From an uncultured Thermoleophilia bacterium (GTDB lineage Bacteria > Actinomycetota > Thermoleophilia > UBA2241), in the NCBI GenBank assembly GCA_963702475.1, contig CAVPCT010000004.1, forward strand, positions 32,001-96,000: 64,000 nucleotides of DNA, written 5' to 3'. The first letter of the stretch is position 1. The number at the start of each line of letters is the position of its first letter. Positions 2,508 through 32,507 of this stretch are shown here, one piece after another. The notes beneath the pieces were generated by a model, which saw nothing but the letters and a program-made list of their open reading frames with translations, was not told where the DNA came from and made no database searches. A program made the translations under genes and the position numbers.

Positions 2508-3266
2508 TCAGGCGCCGCTCGTACCCGGGCTGGCCACATCCTCGACGGGCGCCGTCACCGAGAACTCCGTACGGTCGCCTCGATACACGTCCCGCGCGAG
2601 TTCTACGATCGTTTCCGTATCGTCGAACACGGTGCGGGTGAGCACGATCGCAGGGCTCCCGAGCCCGGCGCCGAGGGCCTCCGCCTCGTAGCGGTCGAGC
2701 GCGACCGCCACGACCCTTGCGTCGGCCTTCGTGGGGTTCACGCCGTAGTGCGACCGCAGCAGCGCCCACAGGGAGCCGGTGAGGTCGTGCTCCAGCAGGT
2801 CGGGGAACCGCACCGCCGACAATTGGATGTTCTCGATGGCGATCGGTTCACCCATGGCCGTGCGCAGTCGCTGCACGACGTAGACGCGGGCGCCGGACGG
2901 GATGCGGAGCAGGTGGGCGGCAACGGGGTCCGGATCCAGCGCGGCGGCGGCCAGCACCTCGGTGCCCGGCTCCCGTGACGCGTCGGTCATGGACCGCGTG
3001 AAGCTGCCCACGCTGAACCTCAGGCGTGGCTCTGCCACGAAGGTGCCCCGACGGGGATTGCGGTAGAGATAGCCCTCCAGGGTGAGGATCTCGAGAGCGT
3101 GCCGTGCAGTCATGCGACTGACCTGGTAGCGCTCACTCAGGATGCGTTCGGACGGTACAGGGGCGTGGGCGTCCAGCTGACCTGCGGCGATCTGGTCGCG
3201 CAGGAGCGCTGCGAGCCAAAGATACAGGGGACTCGACCGCTCGGGCATGCGGCGCGTGCTCGCCAC
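2508..3266 (-). CDS. GntR family (HutC/UTRA) transcriptional regulator
   Basis: PSERILSERYQVSRMTARHAL winged HTH, GTFV, C-terminal UTRA with YRGDR. Confidence 0.9.
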   Translation of the reverse strand: MASTRRMPERSSPLYLWLAALLRDQIAAGQLDAHAPVPSERILSERYQVSRMTARHALEILTLEGYLYRNPRRGTFVAEPRLRFSVGSFTRSMTDASREPGTEVLAAAALDPDPVAAHLLRIPSGARVYVVQRLRTAMGEPIAIENIQLSAVRFPDLLEHDLTGSLWALLRSHYGVNPTKADARVVAVALDRYEAEALGAGLGSPAIVLTRTVFDDTETIVELARDVYRGDRTEFSVTAPVEDVASPGTSGA

Positions 3267-3482: not shown

Positions 3483-3545
3483 TTGACAGCCGGTCCGGAG
3501 ATGCTATGGTGCGTCCAACGACTGGTGGCCACCAATCGGATGGTG
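3483..3545 (+). promoter_or_regulatory. Sigma70-type promoter of the prpE-mttB operon plus TetR-type operator
   Basis: TTGACA (3483-3488), 16-nt spacer ending TGC, TATGGT (3505-3510); palindrome CACCAATCGGATGGTG at 3530-3545. Confidence 0.7.
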
Positions 3546-3603: not shown

Positions 3604-5520
3604 GTGGAGGGACCATACGAGGCCGCGTACCGTGCGTCGATCCAGCGGCCTGACGAGTTCTGGGGCGCGGCAGCCGAGGCCGTCGAGTGGGCGAGCCGCT
3701 GGGACGCCGTCCTCGACCGCTCGGCGTCGCCCGCGCCACGCTGGTTCACCGGAGGAACGCTGAACACCTGTCACAACGCCCTGGATCGCCACGTTGCTGC
3801 CGGCCGCGGCGACACCCTCGCCGTCATCTTCGACAGTCCCGTCACCGGCACGACGACGCAGCTGACGTACCGGGAGCTGCTGGAGCGGGTCTCCCGGTTC
3901 GCCGGTGGCCTGCGTCGGTTGGGCGTGGAGCGGGGCGACCGGGTCGTCATCTACATGCCCATGGTCCCGGAGACGCTCATCGCGATGCTGGCCTGCGCAC
4001 GCATCGGCGCGGTCCACTCCGTCGTGTTCGGAGGGTTCGCGGCCGAGGAGCTCGCGGTCCGCATCGACGACGCCAAGCCGAAGCTCCTGGTCTGGGCCTC
4101 GTGCGGCATCGAGCCCGGCAGGATCGTCGCCTACGGTCCCCTGGTCGAAGGGGCGCTCGAACTGGCCCGCTGGCCGGTGGCATCGACCGTGGTCCTGCAG
4201 CGGGAGCAGCTCGAGGCCGGCGTCTCCGCCGCGCGCGACCACGACTGGCTCGAGCTCGAGCGGTCCTCCGAGCCGGCCGGCTGCGTGGAGGTGGAAGCCA
4301 CGGACCCGCTCTACATCCTCTACACCTCCGGGACCACGGGCAAGCCCAAGGGTGTGGTCCGGGACAGCGGCGGTCACGCCGTGGCTCTGCTGTGGTCGAT
4401 GAAGAACCTGTACGGGGTGGGCCCCGGCGACGTCTTCTGGGCGGCCTCCGACATGGGCTGGGTGGTCGGCCACTCCTACATCGTCTACGGGCCGCTGCTG
4501 GCGGGTGCCACGACGGTCATCTACGAGGGCAAGCCCGTGGGGACGCCGGACGCCGGAGCGTTCTGGCGCGTCGCCGAACAGCACCGCGTCAAGGTCCTCT
4601 TCACGGCGCCCACGGCCATCCGCGCGATCCGCCGGGACGACCCCGAGGGAGGCCTCGTCGGCGCCTACGACCTCAGCTCGCTCGAGGCGCTCTTCCTCGC
4701 CGGCGAACGCCTCGACCCGGACACGTACCACTGGGCGACCGACGTTCTCGGGATCCCGGTCATCGACCACTGGTGGCAGACCGAGACGGGCTGGGCGATC
4801 TGCGCGGACTGCCGCGGGCTGGAGGACCTGCCCCTCAAGCCGGGGTCCCCGACCAGGCCTGTCCCGGGCTTCGACCTCGCCGTGCTGGACGCACACGGCC
4901 ACGCCCTGGAGCCTCCGGCCGAGGGCGTGCTCGCCCTGCGGCTGCCTCTGCCGCCGGGCACGCTCCCGACGCTCTGGCAGAACGACGAGGGGTTCTTCAA
5001 CACCTATCTCGCGCCGTACCCGGGCTACTACTTCACCGGCGACAACGGCAGCGTCGACGAGGACGGCTACGTCTTCGTCATGGGGCGCGTGGACGACATC
5101 ATCAACGTCGCCGGGCACCGCCTGTCCACCGGCCGCATGGAGGAGGTGCTGGCCCAGCACGAGGACGTCGCCGAGTGCGCTGTGATCGGCGCGGCGGACG
5201 ACCTCAAGGGGCAGGTCCCGCTCGGGCTGGTGGTGCTCAAGGCCGGCGCCGACAGGGACCCGGACGAGGTCGGCGCCGAGCTGGTGCGCATGGTCAGGGA
5301 GCACGTCGGCCCGGTGGCGGCGTTCAAGCGCGCCGTTGTTGTGCGGCGCCTGCCCAAGACGCGTTCGGGCAAGATCCTCCGAGGCACGATCCGCAAGATC
5401 GCCGACGGCGCCGAGTTCAGCGTCCCCGCGACCATCGAGGACCCGACAGTCATTCCCGAGCTGATGGAGGTCATGGCGACTCCGCCCGGCACGGGGAGGA
5501 AGGCGGTGAGCGACCGCTGA
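3604..5520 (+). CDS. prpE: Propionate/acetate--CoA ligase
   Basis: YILYTSGTTGKPKG, DHWWQTE, GRVDDIINVAGHRLS and LPKTRSGKILR motifs. Confidence 0.85.
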   Translation: MEGPYEAAYRASIQRPDEFWGAAAEAVEWASRWDAVLDRSASPAPRWFTGGTLNTCHNALDRHVAAGRGDTLAVIFDSPVTGTTTQLTYRELLERVSRFAGGLRRLGVERGDRVVIYMPMVPETLIAMLACARIGAVHSVVFGGFAAEELAVRIDDAKPKLLVWASCGIEPGRIVAYGPLVEGALELARWPVASTVVLQREQLEAGVSAARDHDWLELERSSEPAGCVEVEATDPLYILYTSGTTGKPKGVVRDSGGHAVALLWSMKNLYGVGPGDVFWAASDMGWVVGHSYIVYGPLLAGATTVIYEGKPVGTPDAGAFWRVAEQHRVKVLFTAPTAIRAIRRDDPEGGLVGAYDLSSLEALFLAGERLDPDTYHWATDVLGIPVIDHWWQTETGWAICADCRGLEDLPLKPGSPTRPVPGFDLAVLDAHGHALEPPAEGVLALRLPLPPGTLPTLWQNDEGFFNTYLAPYPGYYFTGDNGSVDEDGYVFVMGRVDDIINVAGHRLSTGRMEEVLAQHEDVAECAVIGAADDLKGQVPLGLVVLKAGADRDPDEVGAELVRMVREHVGPVAAFKRAVVVRRLPKTRSGKILRGTIRKIADGAEFSVPATIEDPTVIPELMEVMATPPGTGRKAVSDR

Positions 5521-5630
5521 CGAGAGACGACGCGGCCGTTGCGACGCCCCCACCCGGGGCGATCGTCGCGGCCGGGACCTGACGGTGACCGACGGGCTCC
5601 CCCTCCGGGCGAGCCCGAGGAGGTGATGAG

Positions 5631-7130
5631 ATGAGACGGAACCTGCAGGCGGGCCACCGCCGCAGCGGAGGCCTGCACCTGGAGGTGTTCACGCCGGACG
5701 AGCTCACCGACATCCACATGGCGACACTGGATGTCTTCGAACGCACCGGCGTGTACGTCGGCAGCGCCGAGGCCCAGGAGCTCTTCCACGGCGCCGGCTG
5801 CAGGGTCGAGGCCGACGGCATCGTCAAGATCCCCGGGCACGTGGTCGAGGACGCGATCCGCTCGACGCCCTCGCGCCTCGCCATGTACGGCCGCGACCCC
5901 AAGCACGACATCGTCCTCGAGGACGGCCGCGTCGGTTTCACCAACTTCGGCGAGGGCATCAACGTCATCGACCCCTACACCGGCGAGTTGCGACAGACGA
6001 CGAAGAAGGACGTGGGCGACTGCTCGCGCATCATCGACGCCCTGCCCGAGATCGACGTCATCGAGCGGCCGCTGGGCGCACATGACGTGCCCGAGGACGC
6101 GGGGCCCCTGCACAACGCCGAGGCCATCTTCACCAACTGCTCCAAGCCGGCCTTCATCGGGCCGCTCACCGGCCACCTCGCACGGCACATGCGCAAGATG
6201 GCGGCCGCCATCGTCGGCGGCGCGGAGCGGCTGCGCGAGCATCCGTACCTCTCGTACGTCATCTGCCCCGTGGCGCCCCTGCGCCTCATCGAGGACGTCT
6301 GCGACATCGTCATCGAGGGCGCCCGCAACCGTGTGCCGGTCACGCCGGTCTCCATCGTCATGGCCGGCGGGTCGGCGCCGATGAGCTTGGCCGGCGCCGT
6401 GGTCACCACCAACGTCGAGATCCTGGGGTGTCTCACGCTCGGCCAGCTGGCGAGCAAGGGCGCGCCCTTCGTCTTCGGCAGCTCGTCGTCGTCGATGGAC
6501 CTCCGCTTCGCCTCCGCCTCCGTGGGCTCCCCCGAGTGCGCCCTCATCAACTCCGCCGTGGCCTGTCTGGCGCGCTACTACCTGCTGCCCAGCTGGGTCG
6601 CCGGGCAGTAGGGCGACTCCAAGCTGGTCGACGCCCAGTCCGGCCACGAGAAGACCCTCACCGGGCTCCTCCCAGCGTTGGCAGGTGCCAACCTGATCTA
6701 CGGGGCCGGGATGCTGGAGTCGGGCATGACCATCGACTACGCGCAGCTCGTCATGGACAACGAGTTCGCGCGCCTCATCAAGTTCTGCGTGAACGGCGTC
6801 CCCGTGAACGACGAGACCCTCTCGGTCGACGTGATCCACGACGTCGGCCCCTTCAGCGACTTCCTCGCCCACGAGGACACCTACCGCCACATGCGCGAGC
6901 AGAGCCAGCCGCGGCTCATCGACCGCCGCGTCCGCGAGGAGTGGACGGCAGCCGGTTCGACGAGCCTCTACGAGCGGGCCCGCGCCGAGGCGATGCGCAT
7001 CCTCGAGAGCCACGAGCCCACGCCCCTGCCCGAGGGTGCGGCCGCCGAGATGGCGGCCATCGTCGCCGAGGCGGAGCGGGAGCTGGGGGTCGAGGCAAGG
7101 CGACCGAAGGTGGCGGTCGTGCAGGCGTGA
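5631..7130 (+). CDS. mttB: Pyrrolysine-containing trimethylamine methyltransferase (MttB) family protein, copy A; in-frame TAG at 6609-6611
   Basis: The 326-aa ORF ends LPSWVAGQ-TAG and continues in frame GDSKLVDAQSGHEKT...GAGMLESGMTIDYAQL to TGA 7130, giving a full-length 499-aa MttB. Confidence 0.92.
6498..7090 (+). repeat. 593-bp segment identical to 19589-20181 in inverted orientation (3' part of the Pyl-mttB copies)
   Basis: Endpoints were compared by eye, and the alternative-frame translations in the ORF track are identical for both copies. Confidence 0.85.
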
Positions 7131-7205
7131 ATCCGATGCGATCATCGACGGCGTGGCCACACAGAAGAGGCGCCACGCCGCAGCCGAGCTGACGAAAGGG
7201 CACAC

Positions 7206-8562
7206 ATGCAGAACACGACGAGCGACACCACCCGGGGACAGCGGATCCGCGACCTCGACCACGAGCACGTGATCCACTCGTGGTCGGTGCAATCGAAGAT
7301 CAGCCCGCTGCCGGTCGCGCGCGCCGAAGGCCGCTACTTCTGGGACTACGACGGCAAGCGCTACCTCGACTTCTCGTCGCAGCTGGTCAACGTCAACATC
7401 GGCCACCAGCACCCCAAGCTGGTCGAGGCGATCGTCGAGCAGGCGCGCACGCTCTGTACGATCGCTCCCTCGGTCGCCAACGACAAGCGCTCCGAGCTCG
7501 CCCGCCTGCTCGCCGAGATCACGCCGGGCGACCTGTGCGCGGCCTTCTTCACCAACGGCGGCGCCGAGGCCAACGAGAACGCCATCAAGCTGGCGACGGT
7601 GGTACACGGGCCGCCCGAAGATCGTCGCCCGCTACCGCTCGTACCACGGGGCGACCGCCGGCGCCGTCGCGCTCACCGGCGACCCCCGGCGCTGGCCGGC
7701 GGAACCGGGCGTCCCCGGCGTGGTGCGCATGTTCGACCCGTACACGTACAGGTGCTCTGCCGGCCACCCCGACCCGTGCCCGGTGTGCTCGGGCGGCCCC
7801 CACCTGGAGGAGATCCTGCAGTACGAAGGGCCGCAGACGGTCGCCGCCGTCATCCTGGAGACGGTCACGGGCACGAACGGCATCATCGTGCCACCCGACG
7901 GCTACCTTCAGTCGATCCGCGAGGTCTGCGACCGCTACGGCGTGCTGCTCATCTGCGACGAGGTCATGGCCGGGTTCGGGCGTACCGGCAGATGGTTCGC
8001 CTGCGAGCACTGGGGTGTGACTCCCGACATCATGACGGTCGCGAAGGGCATCAACTCGGGGTACGTGCCGCTGGGCGCCATGATCGTGCGCGAGCCCATC
8101 AGGAGGTGGCTCGAAGACAGGTACTTCGCCGGCGGCCTCACCTACAGTGGTCACCCCCTCGCTTGCGCTTCCGGCGTCGCCTCGATCAACATCTTCCGGG
8201 AGGAGAAGATCGTCGAGAACGCCGCCGCCATGGGCGAGCTGGTGGGCACGCGCGTCGCCGTGATGCAGGAGCGGCACCCGTCGATCGGAGAGACGCGCGG
8301 CCTCGGCCTCTTCTGGGGTCTCGAGCTGGTGCGCGACCGCGAGACCCGCGAGCCGCTCGTCCCGTTCAACGCAGGCGGGGAGGCCGCGGCCCCCATGACG
8401 CGGCTCGTCAAGGAGGCCGCGGCCCGCGGCCTGCTCCTCATGACCCACTTCAACGTGGCGATGATCTGCCCGCCGCTGACCATCACCCGCGAGGAGCTCG
8501 AGGAAGGGCTCGCGATCCTCGACGAGATCCTCTGTCTCGCCGACGAGGAGGCCGGCGGCTGA
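7206..8562 (+). CDS. Class III PLP aminotransferase (omega-amino acid/beta-alanine/taurine type); apparent frameshift near 7596
   Basis: YLDFSSQLVNVNIGH and GGAEANENAIK, then in a second frame ICDEVMAGFGRTG, DIMTVAKG and GLTYSGHP. Removing one base restores KLARWYTGRPKI. Confidence 0.85.
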
Positions 8563-8624
8563 GGGCGGCAACCACGCCCAGCGCACCGGCCAGGCAGCTT
8601 ACCCACCCAGACGAAAGGACAGAC

Positions 8625-10125
<1,501 letters not shown>

Positions 10126-10167
10126 CGAGCGCCCCGCCGATGCCACACGAGCGCTGGAGGAGAGGAC

Positions 10168-10524
10168 ATGGAGAGAGCCGCGGCACTGGTCAAGTCCGGG
10201 GACATCGCCCCCATCGTGCCCGCCAAGCACGTCAACACCGACACGTGGGTGCTGGTCAAGCCGGCGACGACCGGCAACACGCAGTGCGAGTTCTACGTGA
10301 CCGAGATGAAGCAGGGCGGTGGAGCCGACTGGGACGAGCATCCGGGATGTGAGCACATCTACTACGTCCTGTCCGGGCGCGCCCACATGTGCGTCGAGGA
10401 CGAGGAGTTCGACCTCGAGCCGGGCGACTGCCTGCTCATGCGGGAGGGCGCGCGCCACAAGGTCGACGTGACGGGCAGCGAGACCTTCCGCATCGCGGTC
10501 GTCTTCGCCCCGGGACGCGTGTGA
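10168..10524 (+). CDS. Cupin domain protein
   Basis: EHPGCEHIYYVLSG...LEPGD...H cupin motifs; GGAGGAGAGG RBS. Confidence 0.8.
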   Translation: MERAAALVKSGDIAPIVPAKHVNTDTWVLVKPATTGNTQCEFYVTEMKQGGGADWDEHPGCEHIYYVLSGRAHMCVEDEEFDLEPGDCLLMREGARHKVDVTGSETFRIAVVFAPGRV

Positions 10525-11951
10525 TGGCGAGCGGCAGCCGGCCGCGCTTCGAGCTCCTCAGCGCTGCCGAGATCGAGCGCATCCACGCCGCGGCGCTGGA
10601 CGTCCTCGAGTCCACCGGGGTGTTCGTAGAATCCCCCGACGCGCTGGAGATCTTCGCCGCTGCCGGCTGCCGCATCGAGACCGCCCGGAGGATCGCGCAC
10701 CTCCCCCCCGCCGTCGTGGAGGCGGCCGTCCGCGAGGCTCCCGGCCGTGTGGTCGCACACGGTCGGGAGCGCGGACGCGACGTCGCCTTCGAAGAGTTCG
10801 GCGTGACGTTCACCTCGTTCGGCGAGGGCATCTACGTGGTCGACCCGTTCACGGGCGAACGGCGGGAGTCCTCCAAGGCCGACGTGGGTACGGCAGCGCT
10901 AGCGGTGGACGCGATCGACGACATCGCCATCTGCGAGCGAACGCTGGGCGCCCGGGACGTGCCCCAGCACGTGGCCGCCCTCCACAACGCCGACGCGATC
11001 CTCCGGAACACCACAAAGCACGTCTTCCTCGGCGCCCAGAACGGGTTCGTAGCCGAACGTATCGTGGCACTCCAGCGCGCCATCCTCGGCTCCCCTCAGG
11101 CCGTGCGCGAGCGTTCGCTGGTCACCTTCACGGCCTGCCCTGTGAGCCCTCTCAAGCTGGTCGCCGACTGCTGTGAGGTCATCATGACCGGCGCCCGCCA
11201 CGGCGTGCCGCTGAACATCGTGTCCATGGCGATGGCGGGCGCATCCGCGCCGGTCACCCTGGCCGGGACCCTCGTCACCCACAACGCCGAGGTCCTGGCC
11301 GGCATCACCCTGGCCCAGCTCGCGGCGCCGGGGACGCCGGTGGTGTACGGCAGCGCCTCTACGAGCATCGACCTGCGTCTGGGGTCCGCCGCCGTCGGCT
11401 CTCCCGAGCTGGGCCTGATCAACGCCGCCATCGCGCAACTCGCGCGGCGCTACGGGCTGCCGAGCTTCGTCGCCGGTGGTCTCGGCGACGGCAAGGTCTC
11501 GGACGCCCAGGCGGGTCACGAGAAGACGCTCACGGCGCTGCTCACGGCGCTGTCGGGCGCCAACATCATCTTCGGCCTCGGCATGATCGAGTCGGGGCTC
11601 ACCTTCGACTACGCCCAACTCGTGATGGACGCCGAGTTCGCACGCATGATCGCGCTGTGCCTCGGCGGCGTGCGGGTCGACGACGAGTCCCTGGCCGTCG
11701 CCGACATCCGCGCCGTGGGCCCGTTCGGCGACTTCCTGAGTCTCGACGCCACGCTGCGTCACATGCGTGAGCAGAGCCAGGCCCGCGTCATGGACCGGCG
11801 GGTGCGGGACGAGTGGCTGGCTCAGGGCGGGACGGACATCTACGCGCGCGCCACGCTGGAGGCGCGCCGCATCCTGCGCGACCACCGCCCTCACCCGCTG
11901 CCCGACGACGTGCAGGCGGAGATGACGCGCATCGTGGCCGAAGCGACGTAG
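10524..11951 (+). CDS. MttB-family methyltransferase without pyrrolysine (Leu at the Pyl site)
   Basis: LPSFVAGG-L-GDGKVSDAQAGHEKT aligns with SWVAGQ-TAG-GDSKLVDAQSGHEKT; its ATG overlaps the cupin TGA. Confidence 0.9.
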   Translation: MASGSRPRFELLSAAEIERIHAAALDVLESTGVFVESPDALEIFAAAGCRIETARRIAHLPPAVVEAAVREAPGRVVAHGRERGRDVAFEEFGVTFTSFGEGIYVVDPFTGERRESSKADVGTAALAVDAIDDIAICERTLGARDVPQHVAALHNADAILRNTTKHVFLGAQNGFVAERIVALQRAILGSPQAVRERSLVTFTACPVSPLKLVADCCEVIMTGARHGVPLNIVSMAMAGASAPVTLAGTLVTHNAEVLAGITLAQLAAPGTPVVYGSASTSIDLRLGSAAVGSPELGLINAAIAQLARRYGLPSFVAGGLGDGKVSDAQAGHEKTLTALLTALSGANIIFGLGMIESGLTFDYAQLVMDAEFARMIALCLGGVRVDDESLAVADIRAVGPFGDFLSLDATLRHMREQSQARVMDRRVRDEWLAQGGTDIYARATLEARRILRDHRPHPLPDDVQAEMTRIVAEAT

Positions 11952-12032
11952 CGCAGCGATGACCGAGCAGAGCGGGACGCAAGCGCCGTCAGGCGACGGC
12001 TCGCCGGTCTCCTGAGCGAAGGGCGCGAGACG

Positions 12033-13577
12033 ATGGGCAAGAGCATGTTCGACATCCTGCGGGAGCTGGACGCCAAGCGCGCCGCAGCCCGCGCCGGCGG
12101 CGGAGCAGAGCGCATAGCGGCGCAGCACGCCCACGGCAAGCTCACCGCCCGCGAGCGCCTGGAAGTGCTGCTCGATCCCAACTCCTTCGAGGAGTGGGAC
12201 ATGTTCGTCGAGCACCGCTGCGGCGACTTCGGGATGGACCAGCGCAAGATCCCGGGCGACGGCGTGGTGACCGGGTACGGCACCGTCAACGGACGGCTCG
12301 TGTTCGTGTTCAGCCAGGATTTCACGGTGTTCGGCGGCTCGCTCTCCGAGGCCCACGCCGAGAAGATCTGCAAGATCATGGATCACGCCATGAGGGTGGG
12401 CGCACCCGTCATCGGCCTGAACGACTCGGGCGGGGCACGCATCCAGGAAGGGGTGGCTTCTCTGGGCGGCTACGCCGAGGTCTTCCAGCGCAACATCCTC
12501 GCCTCCGGCGTCATCCCGCAGATCTCCCTCATCATGGGTCCGTGCGCAGGGGGTGCGGTGTACTCGCCGGCGATGACCGATTTCATCTTCATGGTCAGGG
12601 ACTCCTCGTACATGTTCGTCACCGGTCCCGACGTGGTCCGCGCGGTGACCCACGAGGAGGTGACGGCGGAACAGCTCGGCGGCGCCTTCACCCACACGAC
12701 GAAGTCGGGCGTGGCCGACCTCGCCTTCGAGAACGACGTCGACGCTCTGCTCATGATCCGCCGTTTCATGAACTACCTGCCGGCGAACAGCCGCGAGGCC
12801 CCGCCGACGCAGCCGACCAGCGACCCTGCCGACCGCCTCGAGCCGTCGCTCGACAGCCTCGTGCCGGACGACCCCAACCAGCCGTACGACATCAAGGAGC
12901 TCATCTTCAAGGTCGTCGACGACTGGGAGTTCTTCGAGCTGCAGCCCGACTACGCGCGCAACATCGTCATCGGCCTGGCTCGCATGGACGGGCGGCCGGT
13001 CGGCGTGGTCGCCAACCAGCCGCTCGTCCTGGCCGGGTGTCTCGACGTGCGCTCCGCCGTCAAGGCGGCGCGGTTCGTGCGCTTCTGCGACGCCTTCAAC
13101 CTCCCGCTCGTCACGTTCGTCGACGTGCCCGGGTTCCTCCCCGGCATCGAGCAGGAGCAGGGCGGCATCATCAAGGACGGCGCCAAGCTCCTCTTCGCCT
13201 ACGGCGAGTGTACCGTGCCCAAGGTCACGGTCATCACCCGCAAAGCCTACGGGGGCGCCTACGACGTCATGAGCTCGAAGCATCTGCGCGGGGACGTGAA
13301 CTTCGCCTGGCCCTCGGCGGAGATCGCCGTCATGGGGCCCAAGGGCGCCGTGGAGATCGTCTTCCGGGCCGATCTCGGCGACCAGGAGAAGATCGCCGCC
13401 CGTGCGGAGGAGTACGCGAGGAAGTTCGCCAACCCGTTCGTCGCCGGGCACCGCGGCTTCATCGACGACGTCATCATGCCGAGCGAGACGCGCAAGAGGA
13501 TCTGCCGCTCCCTCGCCATGCTTCGCGACAAGCGACTGGAGAACCCGTGGCGCAAGCACAACACGATGCCGCTGTGA
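12033..13577 (+). CDS. pccB: Propionyl-CoA carboxylase beta (carboxyltransferase) subunit
   Basis: [30 protein letters not shown] and RKAYGGAY motifs. Confidence 0.92.
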
Positions 13578-13658
13578 GCGACCCCCTTGCGCGGCCGGGC
13601 CGCCGCCTGCTCCGCCCGGCTGCCGCCGCGCAGTGCGGACCACGACGCCGGTGACGCC

Positions 13659-15643
13659 GTGTTCGACAAGATCCTGATTGCCAACCGCGGCGAGATCGCC
13701 TGCCGCGTCATCAGGACCGCGCGACGGCTCGGCATCGCCACGGTGGCCGTGTTCTCGGAGGCCGATCGCGACGCTCTGCACCTGCGCCTGGCCGACGAGG
13801 GCGTCCCCATCGGCCCCGCGCCGGCCGGGCTCTCGTACCTGGACGTCGACAGGATCGTCGAGGCGTGCAGGCTGACCGGCGCGACCGCGGTGCACCCCTG
13901 TTACGGCTTCCTCGCTGAGAACGCCAGCTTCTGCGAGCGCCTCGAGGCCGAGGGCATCACGTTCATCGGCCCGCCGGCGGCCTCCATCCGCGCCATGGGC
14001 GACAAGATCGCCGCGAAGCAGCTGGCCGAACGCGCGGGGCTCGCCGTGATCCCCGGCTCACAGCTCGTGGCCGGGGGCGACGAGCCGGCGCTGACCGCCG
14101 CCGAGCAGGTCGGCTACCCGGTGATGCTCAAGGCTGCGGCCGGGGGCGGCGGCAAGGGCATGCGCGTCGCCTGGAGCCCCGACCAGCTGCTCGAATCGCT
14201 CGGCCCCTGCCGGGCCGAAGCGCGCAACAGCTTCGGCGACGACCGCGTCTTCCTCGAGAGATACATCGTGGATCCGCGACACATCGAGTTCCAGGTGCTC
14301 GGGGACGCACACGGCGACGTCGTCCACCTCTGGGAGCGCGAGTGCTCCATCCAGCGCCGGCACCAGAAGGTCATCGAGGAGGCGCCGTCGCCGTTCCTCG
14401 ACCAGGCGACGCGCGAGAAGATGGGCTCGCAGGCGGTCGCGCTCGCGAAGGCCGCCGGGTACCGTTCGGCCGGTACGGTGGAGTTCGTCGTCGACGGGGA
14501 CGGCGCATTCTACTTCCTCGAGATGAACACGCGTATCCAGGTCGAGCATCCGGTCACGGAGATGATCACCGGCCTCGACCTGGTGGAGGCCATGATCCGC
14601 ATCGCGGCGGGAGAACAGCTCCCGGTCAGGCAGGAGGACGTGCGCAGCGACGGCTGGGCGCTCGAGTGCCGCATCAACGCGGAGGACCCGTTCCACAACT
14701 TCCTGCCGTCGGTCGGACGCCTCGTCCGCTACCTGCCGCCCGCCGAGGTCGACGGCCACGTGCGGGTGGACACGGGCGTGGAGGAGGGCGACACCGTCAC
14801 GCCCCACTACGACTCGCTCGTCGCCAAGCTCATCACGCACGAGGCGACGCGCGCGGATGCCGTCGCGAGCATGCGCGCAGCGCTCGACCGATTCGTCGTC
14901 CGCGGCGTGAGCACCAACATCGCCTTCCAGGCGGCCCTGCTGCGGCACCCCCGCTTCACGAGCGGCGACTTCCACACCGGCTTCATGGCCCAGGAGTATC
15001 CAGACGGCTTCGACGCCACCGACATGCCGCACGTCGACAAGGTCCTGCTCATTGCGGTCGCCGCCTTGGTCCACCGTACCCGCATCGACCGGCAGGCTTC
15101 GGTCTCCGGCCAGCTGCCGGGGCACGAGCTCAAGGTCGCCGAGGAGTGGACCGTCGTCCTGGACGGTGAACGACACCCCGTCGCCGTCGCGCCCGCGAGG
15201 GGCGGCTACATCGTGACGTACGAAGGTCAGGCGATGAAGATCGTCTCCGGATGGCGGCTCGGCCAGCCTCTCCTCTCCGGCACCCGTGACGGTACGCCGT
15301 TCTGCATCCAGGTCGAGCACGTGGGAATGAAGTACCGGCTCACGTACAGCGGCACCCAGGCCGATGTCCGCGTCATGTCGGCCCGCGCGACCGAGCTGCT
15401 GCTGCGCATGCCGGAGAAGCCGCCCCGCGACCTCGGCGGCGTTCTGCTCTCGCCCATGCCCGGCGTGCTCACCAGGCTCGACGTGGCGGAAGGGCAGCAG
15501 GTCCGGACCGGCGAACCTCTTGCTGTGGTAGAAGCCATGAAGATGGAGAACGTCCTGCGTGCAGAAAGCGACTGCCTGGTCTCCAGGCTGCTGCTGGAGC
15601 CCGGCGACAGCGTGACCGTCGGCCAGCCGATCATGGAGTTCGG

Positions 15644-15647
<4 letters not shown>
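13659..15647 (+). CDS. pccA: Propionyl-CoA carboxylase alpha subunit (biotin carboxylase + BCCP)
   Basis: [31 protein letters not shown] and the EAMKM biotinylation motif. Confidence 0.92.
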
Positions 15648-17826
<2,179 letters not shown>

Positions 17827-17830
<4 letters not shown>

Positions 17831-18867
17831 GTCGAGCGTCGTCATCCGGGCGGCCTCCCTCGCCCGAAGAGCTTGCGACGCAGGTCCGCCGCGGAGACCG
17901 GCGCGCACTGGCCAGGGCCATCACGCTCGTCGAGTCGACGCACCCGAGCGACCAGGCCAGAGCCCTGGCCCTGCTCGAGGCGCTCCATCCCCACGCCGGC
18001 GGCTCCCTGCGCATCGGCGTGTCCGGCGCCCCCGGCGTCGGGAAGTCCACCCTCGTCGAGGCGCTGGGGCTCAGGATCATCGAGGCCGGGCACCGGCCTG
18101 CCGTCCTCGCCGTGGACCCGTCGTCATCGCTCTCCGGCGGATCCGTGCTCGGAGACAAGACCCGTATGGAGCATCTGGCCCATCGTGAGGCGGCCTTCAT
18201 CCGCCCGTCCCCGGCGGCGGGCGCGCGCGGCGGCGTGGCCGCGCGCACGCCGGAGACCATCGAGGTGTGCGAGGCCGCCGGGTTCGACGTCGTGTTCGTC
18301 GAGACCGTCGGCGTCGGTCAAGCCGAGGCCGAAGTGGCCGGCATGACCGACGTGTTCGCCCTGCTGGACCTGCCGTTCGCCGGGGACGGGCTGCAGGCCA
18401 TCAAGCGAGGAGCCACGGAGCTGGCGGACGTGGTCGTGTACACCAAGGCGGACCTCGACGCCGCTGCTGCGGCCGTCGCCTGCGAGCGCATGAACGAGGC
18501 CTTCCAGCTGCTGCGCCCCGTGCGCGTCTCGTGGCGCCCCCGGGCACTCGCAGTGAGCGCCCTCACCGGAGCCGGCGTGGACGCACTGTGGGAGCACCTC
18601 GCAGAGTCGAGGGACCTCGCCGTCGCCAACGGGGAGACCGACGCCCGGCGCGCGCAGCAGGCGGTCGCTCGTCTGACGGCGCTCATCGACGCGGGGCTGC
18701 GTAGCACCCTGCTGCGCCAGGCGGGGCTGGACGAGCGCCTTGCTGCTCTCGAGAAGGCCGTGGCCCTCGGCCGGACATCCCCGCTGGCCGCGGCCGAGGT
18801 GTTCCTGGATGCGGCCGTCCGGCGCATGACAGCATCTGACCCGGCCGCGCGCCCGGCCGGCGCCTGA
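17827..18867 (+). CDS. meaB: Methylmalonyl-CoA mutase-associated GTPase
   Basis: [26 protein letters not shown] and VETVGVGQ motifs. Confidence 0.92.
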
Positions 18868-18887
18868 CGCGCCGGCCGGGCGCGCGG
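18845..18887. terminator. GC-rich hairpin at the meaB 3' end between convergent genes
   Basis: 19-bp perfect stem CCGCGCGCCCGGCCGGCGC with loop CTGAC. Confidence 0.6.
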
Positions 18888-18900
18888 GGCGCGCGAGACC

Positions 18901-19392
18901 TCACTCGTGCGCCGGCGCCTCGGCCTGGGGGGTCAGCGCTGCGATCACATCCGGGGGCGCCTGCACCAACTCGATGAGCACGCCCTCACCCCCTAGCGGC
19001 GATTCCTCGCTCCCCTTGGGGTGGATGAAGCACACGTCGTAGCCGGAAGCCCCTCTCCTGATGCCGCCCGCGGCGAAGCGCACACCCCGGGCGGCGAGCC
19101 AGTCACGAGCGGCCGCCAGGTCGTTCACCCAGAGGCCGATGTGATTGAGGGCCGGCTCGTCCACACGCGGGCGGGCATCCGGGTCGATCGGCTGCATCAG
19201 GTCGATCTCGCAGCGGTGAGCGCCGGTGCCCAGCGACAGGATGGCCTCATCCACGTTCTCCGCAGCCGACTGGTTGCTGCCCGACGGCGTGAGTCCGAGG
19301 TGGTCCACCCACAGGGTCGCGAGGCGGCGCCGGTCTCGCGCCCCGATGGCGATCTGCTGCACCCCAAGGACTCTGAAAGGGCGATCGCTCAC
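18901..19392 (-). CDS. VOC-family protein, probable methylmalonyl-CoA epimerase
   Basis: [21 protein letters not shown] and GVLIELVQ; adjacent to mutase and meaB; GTG start at 19392. Confidence 0.75.
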
Positions 19393-19578
19393 ACGCGGCT
19401 CCCATCCGTGCTTCCGGACCGTGACGGCCAGATCAGGCGCAGCAGGACTTCCTCGCCGCGCCCGGCTATCCTCTCCGACGCCACGGTCGAAGCCCAAGCC
19501 TCGGCTGCAGCGACCCATCCCCTGGGCCGGGCTCGCCCGCAGGCAGCTGCAGACGACAGGCGAGCCCGGCCCGGTCGC

Positions 19579-21048
19579 TTACCGGCTCACCCCCAGCTCC
19601 CGCTCCGCCTCGGCGACGATGGCCGCCATCTCGGCGGCCGCACCCTCGGGCAGGGGCGTGGGCTCGTGGCTCTCGAGGATGCGCATCGCCTCGGCGCGGG
19701 CCCGCTCGTAGAGGCTCGTCGAACCGGCTGCCGTCCACTCCTCGCGGACGCGGCGGTCGATGAGCCGCGGCTGGCTCTGCTCGCGCATGTGGCGGTAGGT
19801 GTCCTCGTGGGCGAGGAAGTCGCTGAAGGGGCCGACGTCGTGGATCACGTCGACCGAGAGGGTCTCGTCGTTCACGGGGACGCCGTTCACGCAGAACTTG
19901 ATGAGGCGCGCGAACTCGTTGTCCATGACGAGCTGCGCGTAGTCGATGGTCATGCCCGACTCCAGCATCCCGGCCCCGTAGATCAGGTTGGCACCTGCCA
20001 ACGCTGGGAGGAGCCCGGTGAGGGTCTTCTCGTGGCCGGACTGGGCGTCGACCAGCTTGGAGTCGCCCTACTGCCCGGCGACCCAGCTGGGCAGCAGGTA
20101 GTAGCGCGCCAGACAGGCCACGGCGGAGTTGATGAGGGCGCACTCGGGGGAGCCCACGGAGGCGGAGGCGAAGCGGAGGTCGATGGCCGTGGTCGACGAC
20201 CCGTACACCATCGGGGCGCCCTTGCGCACGAGCTGCGCGAGCGTGATGCTCGACAGCACCTCGGCGTTATGGGTGACCACCGTCCCCGCCAGGCTGGCCG
20301 GCGAGGACCCGCCCGCCATGGCCATGGAGACCACGTTGACCGGCACGCCCGAGCGTGCTCCGTCCATGACGATCTCGCACATGTCGCGGATCAGCTTGAG
20401 CGGGCTCACCGGACATGTCACGAACGACAGGATCGGATGCTCGCGCAGCCGCTCCGCGCCGCCGACGATGGCGGCCGCCATCTCGCGCATGCGGCCCGAC
20501 AGATAGCCGTTCATCGATCCGACGAAGGCGTGCTTGGAGCAGTTCGTCAGCATGGCCTCGGCGTTGTGCAGCGGCTGTGTCTCCGCCGGCACGTCGTGCG
20601 CCCCCAGCGGCCGCTCGATGACGTCGATCTCGGGCAGGGCGTCGATGATGCGCGAGCAGTCGCCGACGTCCTTCTTCGTCGTCGGCCGCAGTTCGCCGGT
20701 GTAGGGGTCGATGACGCTGATGCCCTCGCCGAAGTTGGTGAAGCCGACGCGGCCGTCCTCGAGGACGACGTCGTGCTTGGGGTCGCGGCCGTACAGGACG
20801 AGGCGCGAGGGCGTCGAGCGGATCGCGTCCTCGACCACGTGCCCGGGGATCTTGACGATGCCGTCGGCCTCGACCCTGCAGCCGGCGCCGTGGAAGAGCT
20901 CCTGGGCCTCCTCGTCCTCCACGAACACGCCGGTGCGCTCGAGCACATCCAGTGTCGCCATGTGGATGTCGGTGAGCTCGTCCGGCGTGAACACCTCCAG
21001 GTGCAGGCCTCCGCTGCGGCGGTGGCCCGCCTGCAGGTTCCGTCTCAT
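19579..21048 (-). CDS. mttB: Pyrrolysine-containing MttB family methyltransferase, copy B; in-frame TAG at 20070-20068
   Basis: The 326-aa ORF ends SWVAGQ-TAG and continues in frame to TAA 19579 (489 aa). Confidence 0.92.
19589..20181 (-). repeat. Inverted identical copy of 6498-7090
   Basis: Same length (593 bp) and identical translations in several frames. Confidence 0.85.
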
Positions 21049-21461: not shown

Positions 21462-21546
21462 TGCAATCTAGGCGCCAGGCCGCACGCTGTCAATGAGACG
21501 TCCCGGGCCGCGCCCGCAGACGCGCGGCGCTCGTCGAAACACGCCG

Positions 21547-22215
21547 TCAGGCGGAGGGCGAGGGGTCCGTGGTCGCGTCCTCACGACCGCGGACCCAGCT
21601 CGTGAGAGCGCCGGCGAAGACCTCGTAAGCTGCGTCGACCGGGAATCTCTCCGCGCTGATCACGTTCTGGACGGCGAGACCGTCGACCACAGCGATGATC
21701 AGTTGGGCGAACCCGCGCGCCTGGTGCTCGTCCAGGCTCTCGAGGCTCTCGGCGAACAGCCTCAGGTACAGATCGACCGCCCACTCGTACATGTTCTCGA
21801 TGCGCTCGCTGTGGCGCTCGTCCCGCAGGATCGCCGGCAGCAGCTCCAGGAACGCCAGATAGGCCTGCGTGTTCTCGCTCATCTCGCGCTTGGCCTGCAC
21901 GAAGGCAGCCATCCGCTCGTCGACCGAGAGTCCTTCCGCCGGCGGAAGGTCGAGCAGCGGAACGAGCAGAGCGATGTTGTCGTGCACCCAGCTGTCCACG
22001 ACGAGCTCCATGAGACCCGCCTTGTTGCGGAAGTAGTACCGCACCGCGGTCTTGTGCAGACCGCACTCCTCGGCGATGTTCTCCAGGCTGAGATAGCCGT
22101 AGCCCTTCTCGATCAGAAGCCGCCGCGTGATCTCCACGATGCGTCGCGCCGTCGGCGGCAGCTCGGCGAGTGGGTCCGGCACGGGATCACGCGGTGCGGG
22201 CGAGTCGACGGCCAC
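21547..22215 (-). CDS. TetR family transcriptional regulator (paralog 1)
   Basis: RRIVEITRRLLIEKGYGYLSLENIAEECGLHKTAVRYYFRNK HTH; GTG start after GAGGAGGAG. Confidence 0.9.
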   Translation of the reverse strand: MAVDSPAPRDPVPDPLAELPPTARRIVEITRRLLIEKGYGYLSLENIAEECGLHKTAVRYYFRNKAGLMELVVDSWVHDNIALLVPLLDLPPAEGLSVDERMAAFVQAKREMSENTQAYLAFLELLPAILRDERHSERIENMYEWAVDLYLRLFAESLESLDEHQARGFAQLIIAVVDGLAVQNVISAERFPVDAAYEVFAGALTSWVRGREDATTDPSPSA

Positions 22216-22306
22216 ATCTCCTCCTCGTTGAGCGGGTGGTGCACTGGAGACACCCCTGGCGCCGGCAGTGGCCGGCGCTTGCCCGGCAGGCGCAGCATAC
22301 CTCAAG

Positions 22307-22420
22307 CACCATCCGAATGGTGCGTTGGGTCCGTCGGCCCGCCGCGAGAATCCGCGTTGACAGCCACCGCCCGGATGCTATATTTGCGTCCACCATGTGG
22401 TGGCCACCAGCCGACTGGTG
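22307..22420. promoter_or_regulatory. Divergent promoter region with two TetR-type operators
   Basis: CACCATCCGAATGGTG (22307-22322), TTGACA (22357)-16-TATATT (22379) and CACCAGCCGACTGGTG (22405-22420). Confidence 0.7.
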
Positions 22421-22536
22421 CAACCTTACTCCTCACGCCGAAAGCGAGTGCAGCCGTGACAGTCGTAGACGACGTCGTGCAGAGGCAGACCAGGGTGGAC
22501 CCGGCCCGCTTCGATCTGGCCGGGTGCGACGCGACG

Positions 22537-23674
22537 ATGAAGGCCGTCGTGACCACCGGCAACGGCGGCTTCGACCAGCTCGACTACCGTGACGTGCCGA
22601 TACCTGTGCCGGCGTCGGGCGAGGTCCTGCTCCAGGTCCTCGCGGCGGGAGTGAACAACACGGAGATCAACACGCGGCTGGGCTGGTACTCCTCCTCAGT
22701 GACGGACAGCACCGAGAGCTTCGCCGAGACCCAGGCCGAAGCGGCCGAGGCCAAGGCCGACGGCGGCTGGGACCAGCCGACTCCGTTCCCCTTCATCCAG
22801 GGCACCGACTGCTGTGGCCGTATCGTCGAAGTCGGGCCGGGTGGAGACGAGAGCGTCCTTGGTAGCCGGGTCCTCGGTACGAGCCTGCATGCGACCGCTC
22901 GGGTACGGCTCGCTCGAGAACATCTGGATGGCCTCGGACTTCGACGGCGCGTTCGCGCAGTACGTGAAGGTCCCCGCCTCGGAGGTCTTCACCATCGAGT
23001 CCGATTGGAGCGACGTCGAGCTGGCAACGATCCCGTGCTCCTACGGCACAGCCGAGACCATGCTGCATCGCGCCGAGGTCGGCGAGGGCGACCGCGTCCT
23101 CGTCACCGGCGCGTCCGGTGGGGTGGGCTCGGCTGCGGTGCAGCTCGCCAAGCGGCGCGGCGCCCACGTCATCGCCGAGGACATCTACCACTTCAGGCAC
23201 GTGCGAGACCTGCCAGAGCCCGACGCGTCGCGCGTGCGCAGCGAGTGGCTGGAGCAGCTGCACGCCGCAGGCGCGGACCGCGTGGTGGACGAAGGCGACG
23301 ACATCGTCGCCGTGCTGGGGCACCAGTCCGTGGACGTCGTGGTGGACAACGTGGGGGGGCCGGCGTTCGCGAGCCTCGTAGAGGCGCTGGCCAGAGGCGG
23401 ACGGTACGCTTCATCCGGCGCGATCGCGGGTCCCATCGTGTCGTTCGACAAGCGCTCCTTCTACCTGAAGGACCTCACGTTCTTCGGCATCACGGCGTGG
23501 GACGAACCCGTGTTCCCGAACCTCGTGTCGTACATAGAGCGTCACGAGATCCGGCCGCTGGTGGCCAGGACCTACCCATTGGCGAAGATCGCCGACGCCC
23601 AGCGCGAGTTCCTCGAGAAGAAGCACCTGGGGAAGTTCGTCCTCGTTCCGCCTCAGGCAGAGCCCAGGGGCTGA
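22537..23674 (+). CDS. MDR-family (Zn-binding alcohol dehydrogenase-like/quinone reductase) oxidoreductase; apparent frameshift near 22877
   Basis: MKAVV...VLLQVLAAGVNNTE...QGTDCCG in one frame, then VLVTGASGGVGSAAVQLAK and HLGKFVL in another. Confidence 0.8.
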
Positions 23675-23946
23675 GACGCTGCCGGCCGAAGTGACCACTC
23701 CCGGCACACAGCCTCGGACACGTGAGTCCGCCGAGATCGAGAGCCGTCTGTGCGGGCATCCGCACAGCGCCTCCGGAAGTGTCCAGACCTGACGCCGGGG
23801 CAGGGTCGCCCTCGACCGCCGGGCCGCTGACAGCCGCCCGCGTGACGCGTGGAGTGTTGTAGGAGCACACGAGAGGAGAGTCCGGAGCCCGTGGGGAGGC
23901 GGGCTGCCAAGCCGATTCGCAAAGCGCAAGCAAGGGGGATTCAAGT

Positions 23947-25632: not shown

Positions 25633-25999
25633 CGAGAGCGGCCTGAAGAGGAGCTCGACCAGACGCAGGATTCTCGGGACGGCGCACTCCACGAGTCGCC
25701 GGTCGCCGCATGCGGCCAGACACCGCTCCCCGTGTCGGCAAGCGTGTGCGCACTTGCCGAGGTGCCGGCCGGCGTGGACTTCGCGCCCACGCCGGGAGTC
25801 CTGCGCCGCGTAAGGCGGGCCCCGAACCCCGGCGCCGGCAGTCCCCCGCCGGCGCCGGGGTCGCCCCGCCCCAGAGCCACCGAAGTCGACGCACCGGGTC
25901 GCATATTAGTCGTAGGGAAGACGGTCCTCGGTAATCGTATGCTGTCGTCAGGCCGACTGACAGAACATCAGGCCAGCATGACGCGTCCTCGGCACTAAT

Positions 26000-26044
26000 T
26001 GACCGGTCAGTCCGTTTGCCATCAGGCGGCGCCGTGTGTATGGT
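26000..26044 (+). promoter_or_regulatory. Probable promoter of the second SBP gene with an upstream palindrome
   Basis: TGACCGGTCA palindrome (26000-26009) and TTGCCA-17-TATGGT; a similar TTGCCA...TGTGTATCGT occurs near 36226-36254. Confidence 0.5.
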
Positions 26045-26127
26045 GAGCAACGTGGGGGAATCCGGCGCGATTCGGCACCGCGCCGGCCCAGCTCCAGGAG
26101 ATATGAATGATGGGGAGGCGTGCTTCG

Positions 26128-29394: not shown

Positions 29395-29503
29395 CACGAC
29401 GCGCGTTCGCCGCGCGGCCGGCCACCTCGCGATGACGAGGGACCATGCAGGCCGACCCGCACTATCCGCCGCAGCATAGCCGGTTCCGGTCTCCAGCTGC
29501 TGC

Positions 29504-30994: not shown

Positions 30995-31072
30995 CGTGGC
31001 CACCTCCTTTCCAGGTGACTCCGCCTGCATCACGATGCCGAGCGCCCATCCTTCCGCCGACAACGAGTCCGC

Positions 31073-32440: not shown

Positions 32441-32507
32441 CGCTCTCGCCTCCTTCCAATCGCCGAAGCCGGCGCAACCAGGGCCGGTCGGCACGATCCC
32501 TCGCCGG

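Follow-up and report, generated by a model that had tools for sequence, protein, structure and literature searches.

A 64,000-nucleotide stretch of DNA from an uncultured, anaerobic Thermoleophilia bacterium (the window; assembly GCA_963702475.1, contig CAVPCT010000004.1, positions 32,001 to 96,000, which is C4:32001-96000 of the genome that we call G000) carries an operon in which genes of the MttB methyltransferase family accompany a class III aminotransferase (AT) and a CoA-acylating dehydrogenase of methylmalonate-semialdehyde type (MMSDH). Two of the methyltransferases have a TAG codon at the column of pyrrolysine (Pyl); a third has leucine there. This arrangement suggests, without proving it, that the operon MttBs act on a methylated amino acid and not on trimethylamine (TMA). 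The reading that we favour, and to which we give about an even chance, is that all methyl groups are removed stepwise from a betaine such as beta-alanine betaine and that the product is then transaminated. The link of the operon to propionyl-CoA is weaker than this link between demethylation and transamination.

The operon had been described, in a sequence-only reading, as a row of genes from prpE to meaB with a convergent epimerase-like gene, together forming a full route from an N-methylated amino acid through propionyl-CoA to succinyl-CoA. Pfam and NCBIfam searches recovered every gene named there, co-oriented on the + strand and tightly spaced, with intergenic gaps of -4 to 110 nt. The end set at 19392 falls inside the convergent gene, a member of the VOC family (18901-19518), and a further Pyl-MttB just upstream of that gene (19579-21048, - strand) was missing from the description. 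We call the Pyl-MttB on the + strand type a, the one on the - strand type b and the leucine-containing enzyme Leu-MttB.

Operon variants in congeneric genomes

The operon was compared among seven congeneric genomes (G000, G015, G019, G020, G046, G055 and G064). In all seven, genes for a PrpE-like ligase, MMSDH and a small cupin accompany pccBA-mcm-meaB and the convergent VOC gene. PrpE-like orthologues (79-81% identity) head the operon in the six relatives, and cupin orthologues (81-84%) come after MMSDH in six of six. This core lacks AT in G046 and G055, and includes AT without any MttB in G015 and G019; AT is present in five of the seven genomes. AT together with two Pyl-MttBs and Leu-MttB, in the same relative order, is found in three (G000, G020 and G064). 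The conservation of gene neighbourhood that the sequence-only reading had proposed to check is thus observed, as the order Pyl-MttB, AT, MMSDH, cupin, Pyl-MttB, Leu-MttB recurs in G064 and G020. In the MttB-bearing operons, a gene for an MDR-family reductase and two SBP_bac_5 genes come next; the SBP_bac_5 orthologues of G064 and G020 (82-90% identity) lie downstream of the reductase, whose intact orthologue follows Leu-MttB in G064. The G064 operon also contains an aldehyde:ferredoxin oxidoreductase gene and, between prpE and the first Pyl-MttB, a corrinoid protein gene. The MttBs had appeared to be insertions specific to G000 when G015, G019 and G020 were sampled by anchoring on mcm; sampling anchored on AT and on the cupin overturned this.

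Other genes come after the cupin in G015 and G046: OTCase-like, carbamate-kinase-like, an ABC importer and dihydropyrimidine-dehydrogenase-like (L007:7927-9998 and L123:2-7861 in G015; L031:10493-19900 in G046). The last of these carries a fused DHO_dh domain in G015 and is represented by its N-terminal part only in the G046 locus. From its gene content, this module looks like a reductive pyrimidine route yielding beta-alanine or 3-aminoisobutyrate. N-carbamoyl-beta-alanine looks to be split in this route by phosphorolysis with gain of ATP, not by hydrolysis.

AT orthologues are 82-94% identical across the MttB-containing and the pyrimidine-linked types of operon, and the AT substrate should therefore be the same in both. 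The pyrimidine-linked operons point to beta-alanine or 3-aminoisobutyrate as this substrate. One upstream module thus appears to have been swapped for another on a common core, and this exchange is our strongest reason to think that a beta-amino acid may also be what the methyltransferase module delivers.

In the window the AT and MMSDH genes are each interrupted by a frame change (see below) and match in two pieces, AT to NF004718 with 167 and 427 bits and MMSDH to TIGR01722 with 298.4 and 157.7 bits. The intact orthologues pass the cut-offs, with 625.4 bits against 472 for the AT of G015 and 494.7 against 448.5 for the MMSDH of G064.

Three methyltransferases and their relatives

All three operon methyltransferases exceed the cut-off of the TMA methyltransferase model TIGR02369 (525), with 677 bits for type a, 729.7 for type b and 636.6 for Leu-MttB. 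Types a and b share identical DNA over the first ~115 bp and the last ~590 bp. When a and b of one genome are compared, residues 296-485 show 100% identity in all three genomes and residues 1-150 reach 93-100%; between G000 and G064 or G020 these end regions are only 82-84% identical, with 82-83% for residues 296-485. Residues 151-295 behave in the opposite way, being 66-75% identical between a and b of one genome (66% in G000) and 79-80% identical between G000 and G064 or G020 when a is compared to a and b to b. Such a pattern across three genomes indicates gene conversion that makes the ends uniform and leaves two separate central cassettes in place. Types a and b probably differ in function.

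Roles of catalytic and pocket residues were taken from the part of the description of Methanosarcina barkeri MttB that excerpts of PMC9842639 give. The position of the pocket residue Met249 is occupied by Ile in type a of all three genomes and by Met in type b. An equivalent of the catalytic Gly110 is present in all copies compared, and the position of Thr111 is Glu in all of them. The Tyr364 equivalent is kept in seven of seven Pyl copies and lost in three of three non-Pyl copies. Leu-MttB, whose orthologues in G064 and G020 are 68% identical to it, has Phe at this position.

A phylogenetic tree places all TAG copies in one clade (support 99) together with the Leu copies and with non-Pyl MttBs that have Pro at the Pyl column and are linked to AT in genomes G006, G063 and G053. 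Within this clade, a subclade of 16 rows (support 97) unites the operon Pyl copies with the Leu and the AT-linked Pro copies; outside the subclade falls the MttB of a canonical MtmB-MtbB-MttB cluster on contig C9. Since Leu-MttB nests within the Pyl clade of this tree, whose members include no characterised non-Pyl MttB, it looks like a case of secondary Pyl loss within the Pyl type.

The genome encodes the machinery that the TAG codons require: tRNA-Pyl(CUA), pylB (438 bits), pylC (322.7 vs 248), pylD (209 vs 150) and PylS (314.6 vs 178, judged by its C-terminal, catalytic domain), all scoring above curated cut-offs. On this set of genes, Pyl decoding is evidently real. Among 75 MttB-family matches in G000, 51 are near full length, and 13 of these 51 contain a single TAG, every time at the Pyl column. 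The operon TAGs (6609-6611 and 20068-20070) align there with those of 11 other paralogues and with the Pyl of 7xcm. MtbB-family matches number 16, of which seven are near full length with one TAG each; MtmB-family matches number five, one with TAG.

MMSDH and Leu-MttB also have TAG as their final codon, and their reading frame runs on into the following gene (cupin and pccB, respectively) without an intervening stop (10123-10168 and 11949-12033). Reading these codons as Pyl would fuse MMSDH with the cupin and Leu-MttB with pccB. The frames of MMSDH and cupin differ in G064, and both junctions are probably coincidental.

We also looked at AT-linked methyltransferases in other genomes. In G006, G063 and G053, the non-Pyl (Pro) MttB of the operon subclade lies directly upstream of another AT of NF004718 type. 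Relatives of the operon AT with 63-71% identity occur in 15 genomes; at the two of these loci that were annotated (L014 and L016) AT adjoins a BKACE enzyme and adenosine deaminase, and tblastn found no methyltransferase or other operon query gene at these 15 loci.

A wider sample consisted of 79 loci fetched with an MttB alignment, labelled as Thermoleophilia/Actinomycetes, Desulfobacterales/Deltaproteobacteria, one Gemmatimonadaceae and one Gammaproteobacteria. A class III AT lies within the flanks of 21 loci (12 of Desulfobacterales/Deltaproteobacteria and nine of Thermoleophilia/Actinomycetes). About 8% would be expected by chance (~19 AT genes in 4.3 Mb), a figure that does not amount to a test since the loci are mutually related. 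The AT of L095 passes the GABA (gamma-aminobutyrate) transaminase equivalog TIGR00700 with 556 bits against 507, and in 11 of the 12 deltaproteobacterial loci the AT shares 59-100% identity with it. In L095 and L105 the order is non-Pyl MttB, Pyl-MttB, GABA-type AT, Pyl-MtbB and URO-D methyltransferase, with corrinoid proteins between them; the non-Pyl MttB passes the Pyl-MttB model, and in L105 aldehyde:ferredoxin oxidoreductase comes next. Desulfospira joergensenii DSM 10085 likewise has Pyl-MttB, a corrinoid protein, a pterin-binding methyltransferase, Pyl-MtbB and AT. No MtmB was found within the fetched Desulfobacterales loci L095, L105 and L112 (positions 6235-16936, 5456-15764 and 7983-16426, respectively).

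Two lineages thus pair Pyl methyltransferases, independently of each other, with different omega-aminotransferase subfamilies. The difference in subfamily fits a lineage-specific carbon skeleton left after demethylation. A more general proposal, whose probability we place somewhat short of even, is that the Pyl-MttB subclade and a Pyl-free sister that arose inside it form a three-enzyme relay, which takes all three N-methyl groups off a betaine and hands the primary amine on to a dedicated omega-aminotransferase. The substrate would be beta-alanine betaine in Thermoleophilia, and of GABA type, with participation of Pyl-MtbB, in Desulfobacterales.

Proposed route and alternatives

We infer every substrate, the order of demethylation and a single transcript, and propose the following route. 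An Opp-type importer would take up the quaternary N-methyl amino acid, for which beta-alanine betaine is the best guess. Leu-MttB, devoid of Pyl, would remove the first methyl group from the quaternary amine. Pyl-MttBs a and b, in which the cassette lining the pocket differs, would then remove the second and the third, from the tertiary and the secondary amine; Pyl would serve here since neither amine is a leaving group that already carries a charge. Methyl groups would pass through the corrinoid protein encoded nearby (32511-33491) to tetrahydrofolate. The freed primary amine would be transaminated by the Toa/PRK06062-type AT, from beta-alanine or 3-aminoisobutyrate to malonate or methylmalonate semialdehyde, which MMSDH would convert to acetyl- or propionyl-CoA. 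Propionyl-CoA carboxylase (PCC), the VOC-type epimerase and methylmalonyl-CoA mutase (MCM) with MeaB would carry propionyl-CoA to succinyl-CoA. The N-demethylation module would have been added to a beta-amino-acid core in the G000 species and two congeners.

Assignments along the last part of this route are of unequal firmness. The mcm and meaB products pass their families (NF006944, 1158.6 vs 876; NF006958, 402.9 vs 329). For the pccB/pccA pair, the NCBIfam mmdA subfamily gives 777 bits against a cut-off of 998.8. The VOC protein, convergent as described in the sequence-only reading, falls below the epimerase equivalog whose label it had received (TIGR03081, 46.1 vs 114.95), and its sole solved match is 6bu2, "Glyoxalase", with 38.6 bits; its conserved place convergent to meaB in seven of seven genomes makes it a candidate epimerase. 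The label prpE fared similarly. The product stays below both models of the propionate-CoA ligase equivalog (NF007815/TIGR02316, 724.1 vs 955 and 686.2 vs 827.4), scores 656.2 against 657 in the acetate-CoA ligase subfamily, and is probably best filed as a short-chain acyl-CoA synthetase of the ACS family.

Several observations weigh against the stepwise route. MttB genes are absent from four of the seven congeners, and, as all three MttB operons come from one genus, common ancestry accounts for part of their conservation. Beta-alanine betaine is the simplest candidate substrate, yet it would give acetyl-CoA. This also counts against the full route to propionyl-CoA in the sequence-only reading, whose sequence of demethylation and transamination is favoured by the gene order of the relatives. 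Its inclusion of pcc-mcm-meaB in the operon is not: these genes form one string with the operon only in G000 and a separate neighbouring unit in five relatives (in G020 the PrpE-like/MMSDH/cupin unit and the pcc-mcm unit are ~19 kb apart on the same contig). They may be linked to the operon only through an ancestral thymine/3-aminoisobutyrate branch. The SBP_bac_5 importer is of Opp/Nik type and not of a known betaine type. No gene with a B12-binding domain was detected by Pfam in 3604-21048, so that the cognate MttC-type partner is not in the G000 operon, and the G020 operon likewise has no corrinoid protein gene inside. Neither a methyltetrahydrofolate methyltransferase nor an activase was found near the operon; Pterin_bind and RACo genes occur elsewhere in G000. 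TMA itself is a possible substrate, judging from the passing of the TMA equivalog by a, b and Leu-MttB and from the Met249 kept by b. Finally, 36 of the 75 MttB matches (some of which are pieces of one gene) lie in C4:2,366-234,911, about one per 6.5 kb, and two or three MttB genes per 16 kb are roughly what chance predicts in this genome. With MttB density so high, it is conservation in relatives, and not adjacency in G000, that argues for linkage.

This density is also what favours mere co-location, in which the MttBs would act on TMA or unrelated methylated amines, being members of an expanded, mobile family whose gene order was inherited in the genus. G000, G020 and G064 differ by rearrangement of the operon, the identical ends of a and b reveal active recombination, and the points on missing MttBs, missing corrinoid gene and TMA model just given count here as well. 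We nevertheless regard this explanation as unlikely. Three species with proteins ~68-88% identical share the relative order of the three MttB types, and the central cassettes of a and b stay distinct despite homogenised flanks. In addition, another type of operon has MttBs of this subclade beside an AT that belongs to the NCBIfam subfamily of the operon AT, and Desulfobacterales join Pyl methyltransferases with a different omega-aminotransferase.

In a second alternative, a lyase, perhaps the cupin, would split a trimethylammonium compound into TMA and a C3 acid such as acrylate. The Pyl-MttBs would then act on TMA, in keeping with the model that they pass, and the PrpE/ACS-like ligase and the MDR reductase would make propionyl-CoA for PCC and MCM, encoded in the same operon in G000. 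The reductase is weakly similar to acryloyl-CoA reductases (101 vs 500 bits for the intact G064 orthologue, which scores 119 vs 296.8 in the PIG3 family). The cupin itself offers weak matches only, to ureidoglycine aminohydrolase cupin and 1sq4, and none to a DMSP-lyase Pfam family at E <= 0.001. It is equally present in MttB-less operons with the pyrimidine module; its relatives of 52-53% identity in another family come after a 3-hydroxyisobutyrate-dehydrogenase-like gene, and those of 42-50% identity stand in unrelated contexts. Use of TMA would require neither Leu-MttB nor two differentiated Pyl-MttBs, the operon contains no MtbB or MtmB, and AT and MMSDH would be left without a role. Altogether, a lyase route seems quite improbable.

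We assign a similarly small probability to a methylated 2-aminoethyl compound, such as N-methylated taurine, as the substrate in place of a beta-amino acid. Methylated taurines are natural osmolytes, and the solved structure closest to the operon AT is 6jix, a taurine:2-oxoglutarate aminotransferase (407.6 bits), which is a point against a beta-amino acid. On the other side, the G064 orthologue of MMSDH passes the MMSDH model and scores lower in the model of sulfoacetaldehyde dehydrogenase. Orthologous AT-MMSDH pairs adjoin genes of pyrimidine degradation, and no Xsc, isethionate-lyase or sulfite genes were found in the Pfam survey of the window.

The frame changes in AT and MMSDH need separate consideration. 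The AT frame shifts once near 7597, with one surplus base relative to intact orthologues, and the MMSDH frame shifts once near 9660, with a surplus G relative to G064, G020 and G015. A short-read contig from run X1 has no base 7597, so that the AT frame is restored ("KLARWYTGRPK"), and differs from the window by four additional 1-nt indels; the MMSDH break lies outside the listed read and contig evidence, a further weak point of the route. At least seven genes of the window (AT, MMSDH, MDR reductase, Opp permease, Opp ATPase, urocanase and M20 peptidase) are split by single frame changes in the same manner. Given the missing base and these other splits and indels, the breaks look like assembly errors. 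The source bin (4.3 Mb in nine contigs, completeness 93.8%, contamination 6.5%; G+C of the window 70%) looks indel-rich as assembled, and any "pseudogene" in it needs support by reads. Gene order is not an assembly artefact, since short-read contigs span the junctions prpE/MttB-a (X4, X11) and cupin/Leu-MttB/pccB (X1). That both breaks are real and the pathway is dead in this organism is very improbable, since such splits are typical of an indel-rich assembly, the AT of G020 is split at another site, and codon-position GC retains a coding-like pattern before and after the AT and MMSDH breaks.

Operon features, neighbouring genes and known systems

Features of the operon and its surroundings are listed in Table 1.

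Table 1. Position and basis of assignment of the operon genes, regulators and putative transport genes in the window
Feature	Position	Strand	Basis and remarks
GntR/UTRA regulator	2508..3266	-	Pfam GntR + UTRA; divergent from operon
Promoter-like site upstream of PrpE-like gene	3483..3510	+	TTGACA-16-TATGGT with TG; consensus match only
ACS/PrpE-like short-chain acyl-CoA synthetase (putative)	3604..5520	+	Pfam ACAS_N + AMP-binding + AMP-binding_C
Pyl-MttB, type a	5631..7130	+	TAG (Pyl) 6609-6611
Class III AT, NF004718/PRK06062 subfamily	7206..8562	+	Pfam Aminotran_3 over two frames
CoA-acylating MMSDH-type aldehyde dehydrogenase	8625..10125	+	TIGR01722, two pieces
Small cupin	10168..10524	+	Pfam Cupin_2; stop overlaps next start (TGATG)
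Leu-MttB (non-Pyl, Leu at Pyl column)	10524..11951	+	TIGR02369
pccB	12033..13577	+	Pfam Carboxyl_trans; propionyl-CoA carboxylase type
pccA	13587..15647	+	Pfam Biotin_carb + PCC_BT + Biotin_lipoyl
mcm, fused methylmalonyl-CoA mutase	15644..17830	+	NF006944
meaB, MeaB GTPase	17827..18867	+	NF006958
VOC/Glyoxalase_4, candidate methylmalonyl-CoA epimerase	18901..19518	-	Pfam Glyoxalase_4, 95.5 bits; true start probably inside given frame
Pyl-MttB, type b	19579..21048	-	TAG (Pyl) 20068-20070; co-directional with VOC gene
Promoter-like site upstream of type b	21465..21493	-	TTGACA-17-TAGATT; consensus match only
TetR/BetI-type regulator	21550..22377 (stop-to-stop frame)	-	Pfam TetR_N + TetR_C_6
MDR-family (zinc-ADH-like) reductase, frame broken	22432..23694 (approximate)	+	ADH_N and ADH_zinc_N in different frames
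Two SBP_bac_5 (Opp/Nik-type) solute-binding proteins, probable importer parts	23947..27816	+	Pfam; weak NCBIfam matches
Opp-type permease and ATPase genes	36515-41189		

Three promoter-like sites, all of them consensus matches only, were detected in 2500-22400, compared to 0.8 expected from shuffles, and they lie at the intergenic places where promoters would be expected, upstream of prpE, of type b and of the next + strand gene. Terminator-like sites are not enriched there (5 vs 3.4 in shuffles). The GntR/UTRA regulator has a 76% identical orthologue in G020 (locus L003), upstream of the pcc-mcm genes. Relatives of the TetR/BetI-type regulator (50-55% identity) flank the operon in G064 and G020; in the window, type b lies downstream of the TetR gene.

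A second methyltransferase cluster (27949..35013, - strand) encodes another Leu-MttB, a third Pyl-MttB (TAG at 30014-30016), a LysA-like decarboxylase, a corrinoid protein and a non-Pyl MtmB-like protein. Its pyridoxal-phosphate-type (PLP) decarboxylase scores 292.8 bits against a cut-off of 297.9; the corrinoid protein is the one nearest to the operon, and the MtmB-family gene (33304-35013) is of full length, without TAG and without an NCBIfam match. In G020, the MtmB-like gene, corrinoid protein, decarboxylase and third Pyl-MttB lie directly upstream of TetR/prpE, Leu-MttB not being among them. The second cluster may belong to the same catabolic island.

Further MttB-family genes stand in other contexts. 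At 52486-61651 (- strand) a non-Pyl MttB with Trp at the Pyl column adjoins genes of histidine utilisation, namely aromatic amino-acid lyase, formiminotransferase-cyclodeaminase, amidohydrolase and urocanase. On contig C9 of G000, a second class III AT lies directly upstream of a non-Pyl MttB with Tyr at the Pyl column (252155-254733), with an MtmB-like gene close by (248475-249818). The same contig carries an apparently canonical methylamine cluster (locus L043, 298000-317900) with Pyl-MtmB, corrinoid proteins, an ethanolamine-permease-like transporter, Pyl-MtbB, a sodium:solute symporter and Pyl-MttB. In G006, the AT-linked locus (L028:5684-19900) consists of a corrinoid protein, MtmB-like, the non-Pyl MttB (Pro), the NF004718-type AT and a D-glutamate-cyclase-like gene. 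It continues with aldehyde:ferredoxin oxidoreductase, a DHDPS-family gene, a TetR gene and a glycyl-radical enzyme with its activase. A release-factor-like gene of the baeRF family is located at L028:3374-4666.

According to PMC9768040, every characterised Pyl enzyme uses tri-, di- or monomethylamine as its substrate, the only process with which Pyl methyltransferases have been connected to date is methanogenesis from methylamines, and a new role of bacterial Pyl-MttB is an open question. Our literature search, which did not extend to supplements, found neither a Pyl-MttB acting on a substrate other than TMA nor an operon combining MttB with an aminotransferase; the word "aminotransferase" does not occur in PMC8318568. 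The relay proposed above, if true, would give a Pyl enzyme its first substrate other than a methylamine, and would be the first complete path by which a quaternary amine is turned into a primary one under anaerobic conditions. If the Pyl paralogues described here take substituted tertiary and secondary amines, this would account for the dozen or more Pyl genes in some anaerobes and for full mineralisation of betaines without release of TMA, and would show which chemical problem Pyl solves outside methanogens. Pairs of a and b cassettes point to residues that may determine specificity, and Desulfospira joergensenii DSM 10085, which has the parallel locus, is cultured and makes the proposal testable at the bench.

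Catabolism of beta-alanine and 3-aminoisobutyrate employs an omega-aminotransferase and a CoA-acylating (methyl)malonate-semialdehyde dehydrogenase, for example in bauABCD and mmsA of Pseudomonas. The operon resembles these systems in that a class III AT adjoins an MMSDH-family dehydrogenase, a pair linked in the relatives to genes of reductive pyrimidine degradation. It differs in the NF004718/Toa-like type of AT, the conserved small cupin, the PrpE-like ligase and the inserted corrinoid methyltransferases. With the PCC/epimerase/MCM-MeaB pathway it shares MCM and MeaB that pass their equivalogs and a PccA with the PCC_BT domain; the VOC "epimerase", far under the TIGR03081 cut-off, and the location inside an amine operon, seen only in G000, set it apart.

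Characterised methyltransferases offer three comparisons. The second cluster recalls MtqB, the tetramethylammonium/choline methyltransferase of Methanococcoides methylutens Q3c (PMC13044021, in excerpt), in that a TAG-less MtmB-family gene is next to a corrinoid protein. The gene described here is bacterial, lies beside a LysA-like decarboxylase and has no NCBIfam match.

Non-Pyl enzymes acting on quaternary amines are described in PMC8604678, PMC12155760 and PMC13044021, as far as the excerpts of these papers go. Like MtgB, MtpB, MtcB, MtyB and MthB of the first two, Leu-MttB has no Pyl and no Tyr364 equivalent, in keeping with an enzyme whose substrate, a quaternary amine, carries a charge from the outset. 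Points of difference are its position within the Pyl clade and its passing of the Pyl-MttB equivalog. Solved MtgB is also the more distant relative of type b (249.5 bits, as compared to 415 for M. barkeri MttB, 7xcm). MthB removes a single methyl group, converting choline to dimethylaminoethanol, whereas here two more methyltransferases and AT come next.

The closest characterised counterpart of the Pyl copies is MttB/MttC of M. barkeri (7XCL/7XCM; PMC9842639, from the same excerpts). Shared features are TAG at the Pyl334 column, equivalents of Gly110 and Tyr364, and pylTSBCD in the genome. The enzymes of the window belong to a bacterial host, whose closest named records are labelled Thermoleophilia, and come as two isoforms, between which the central cassette is swapped. 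Type a has Ile at Met249, and Thr111 is replaced by Glu in all copies. Their genes stand amid an AT/MMSDH pair and not with MttC/MtbA.

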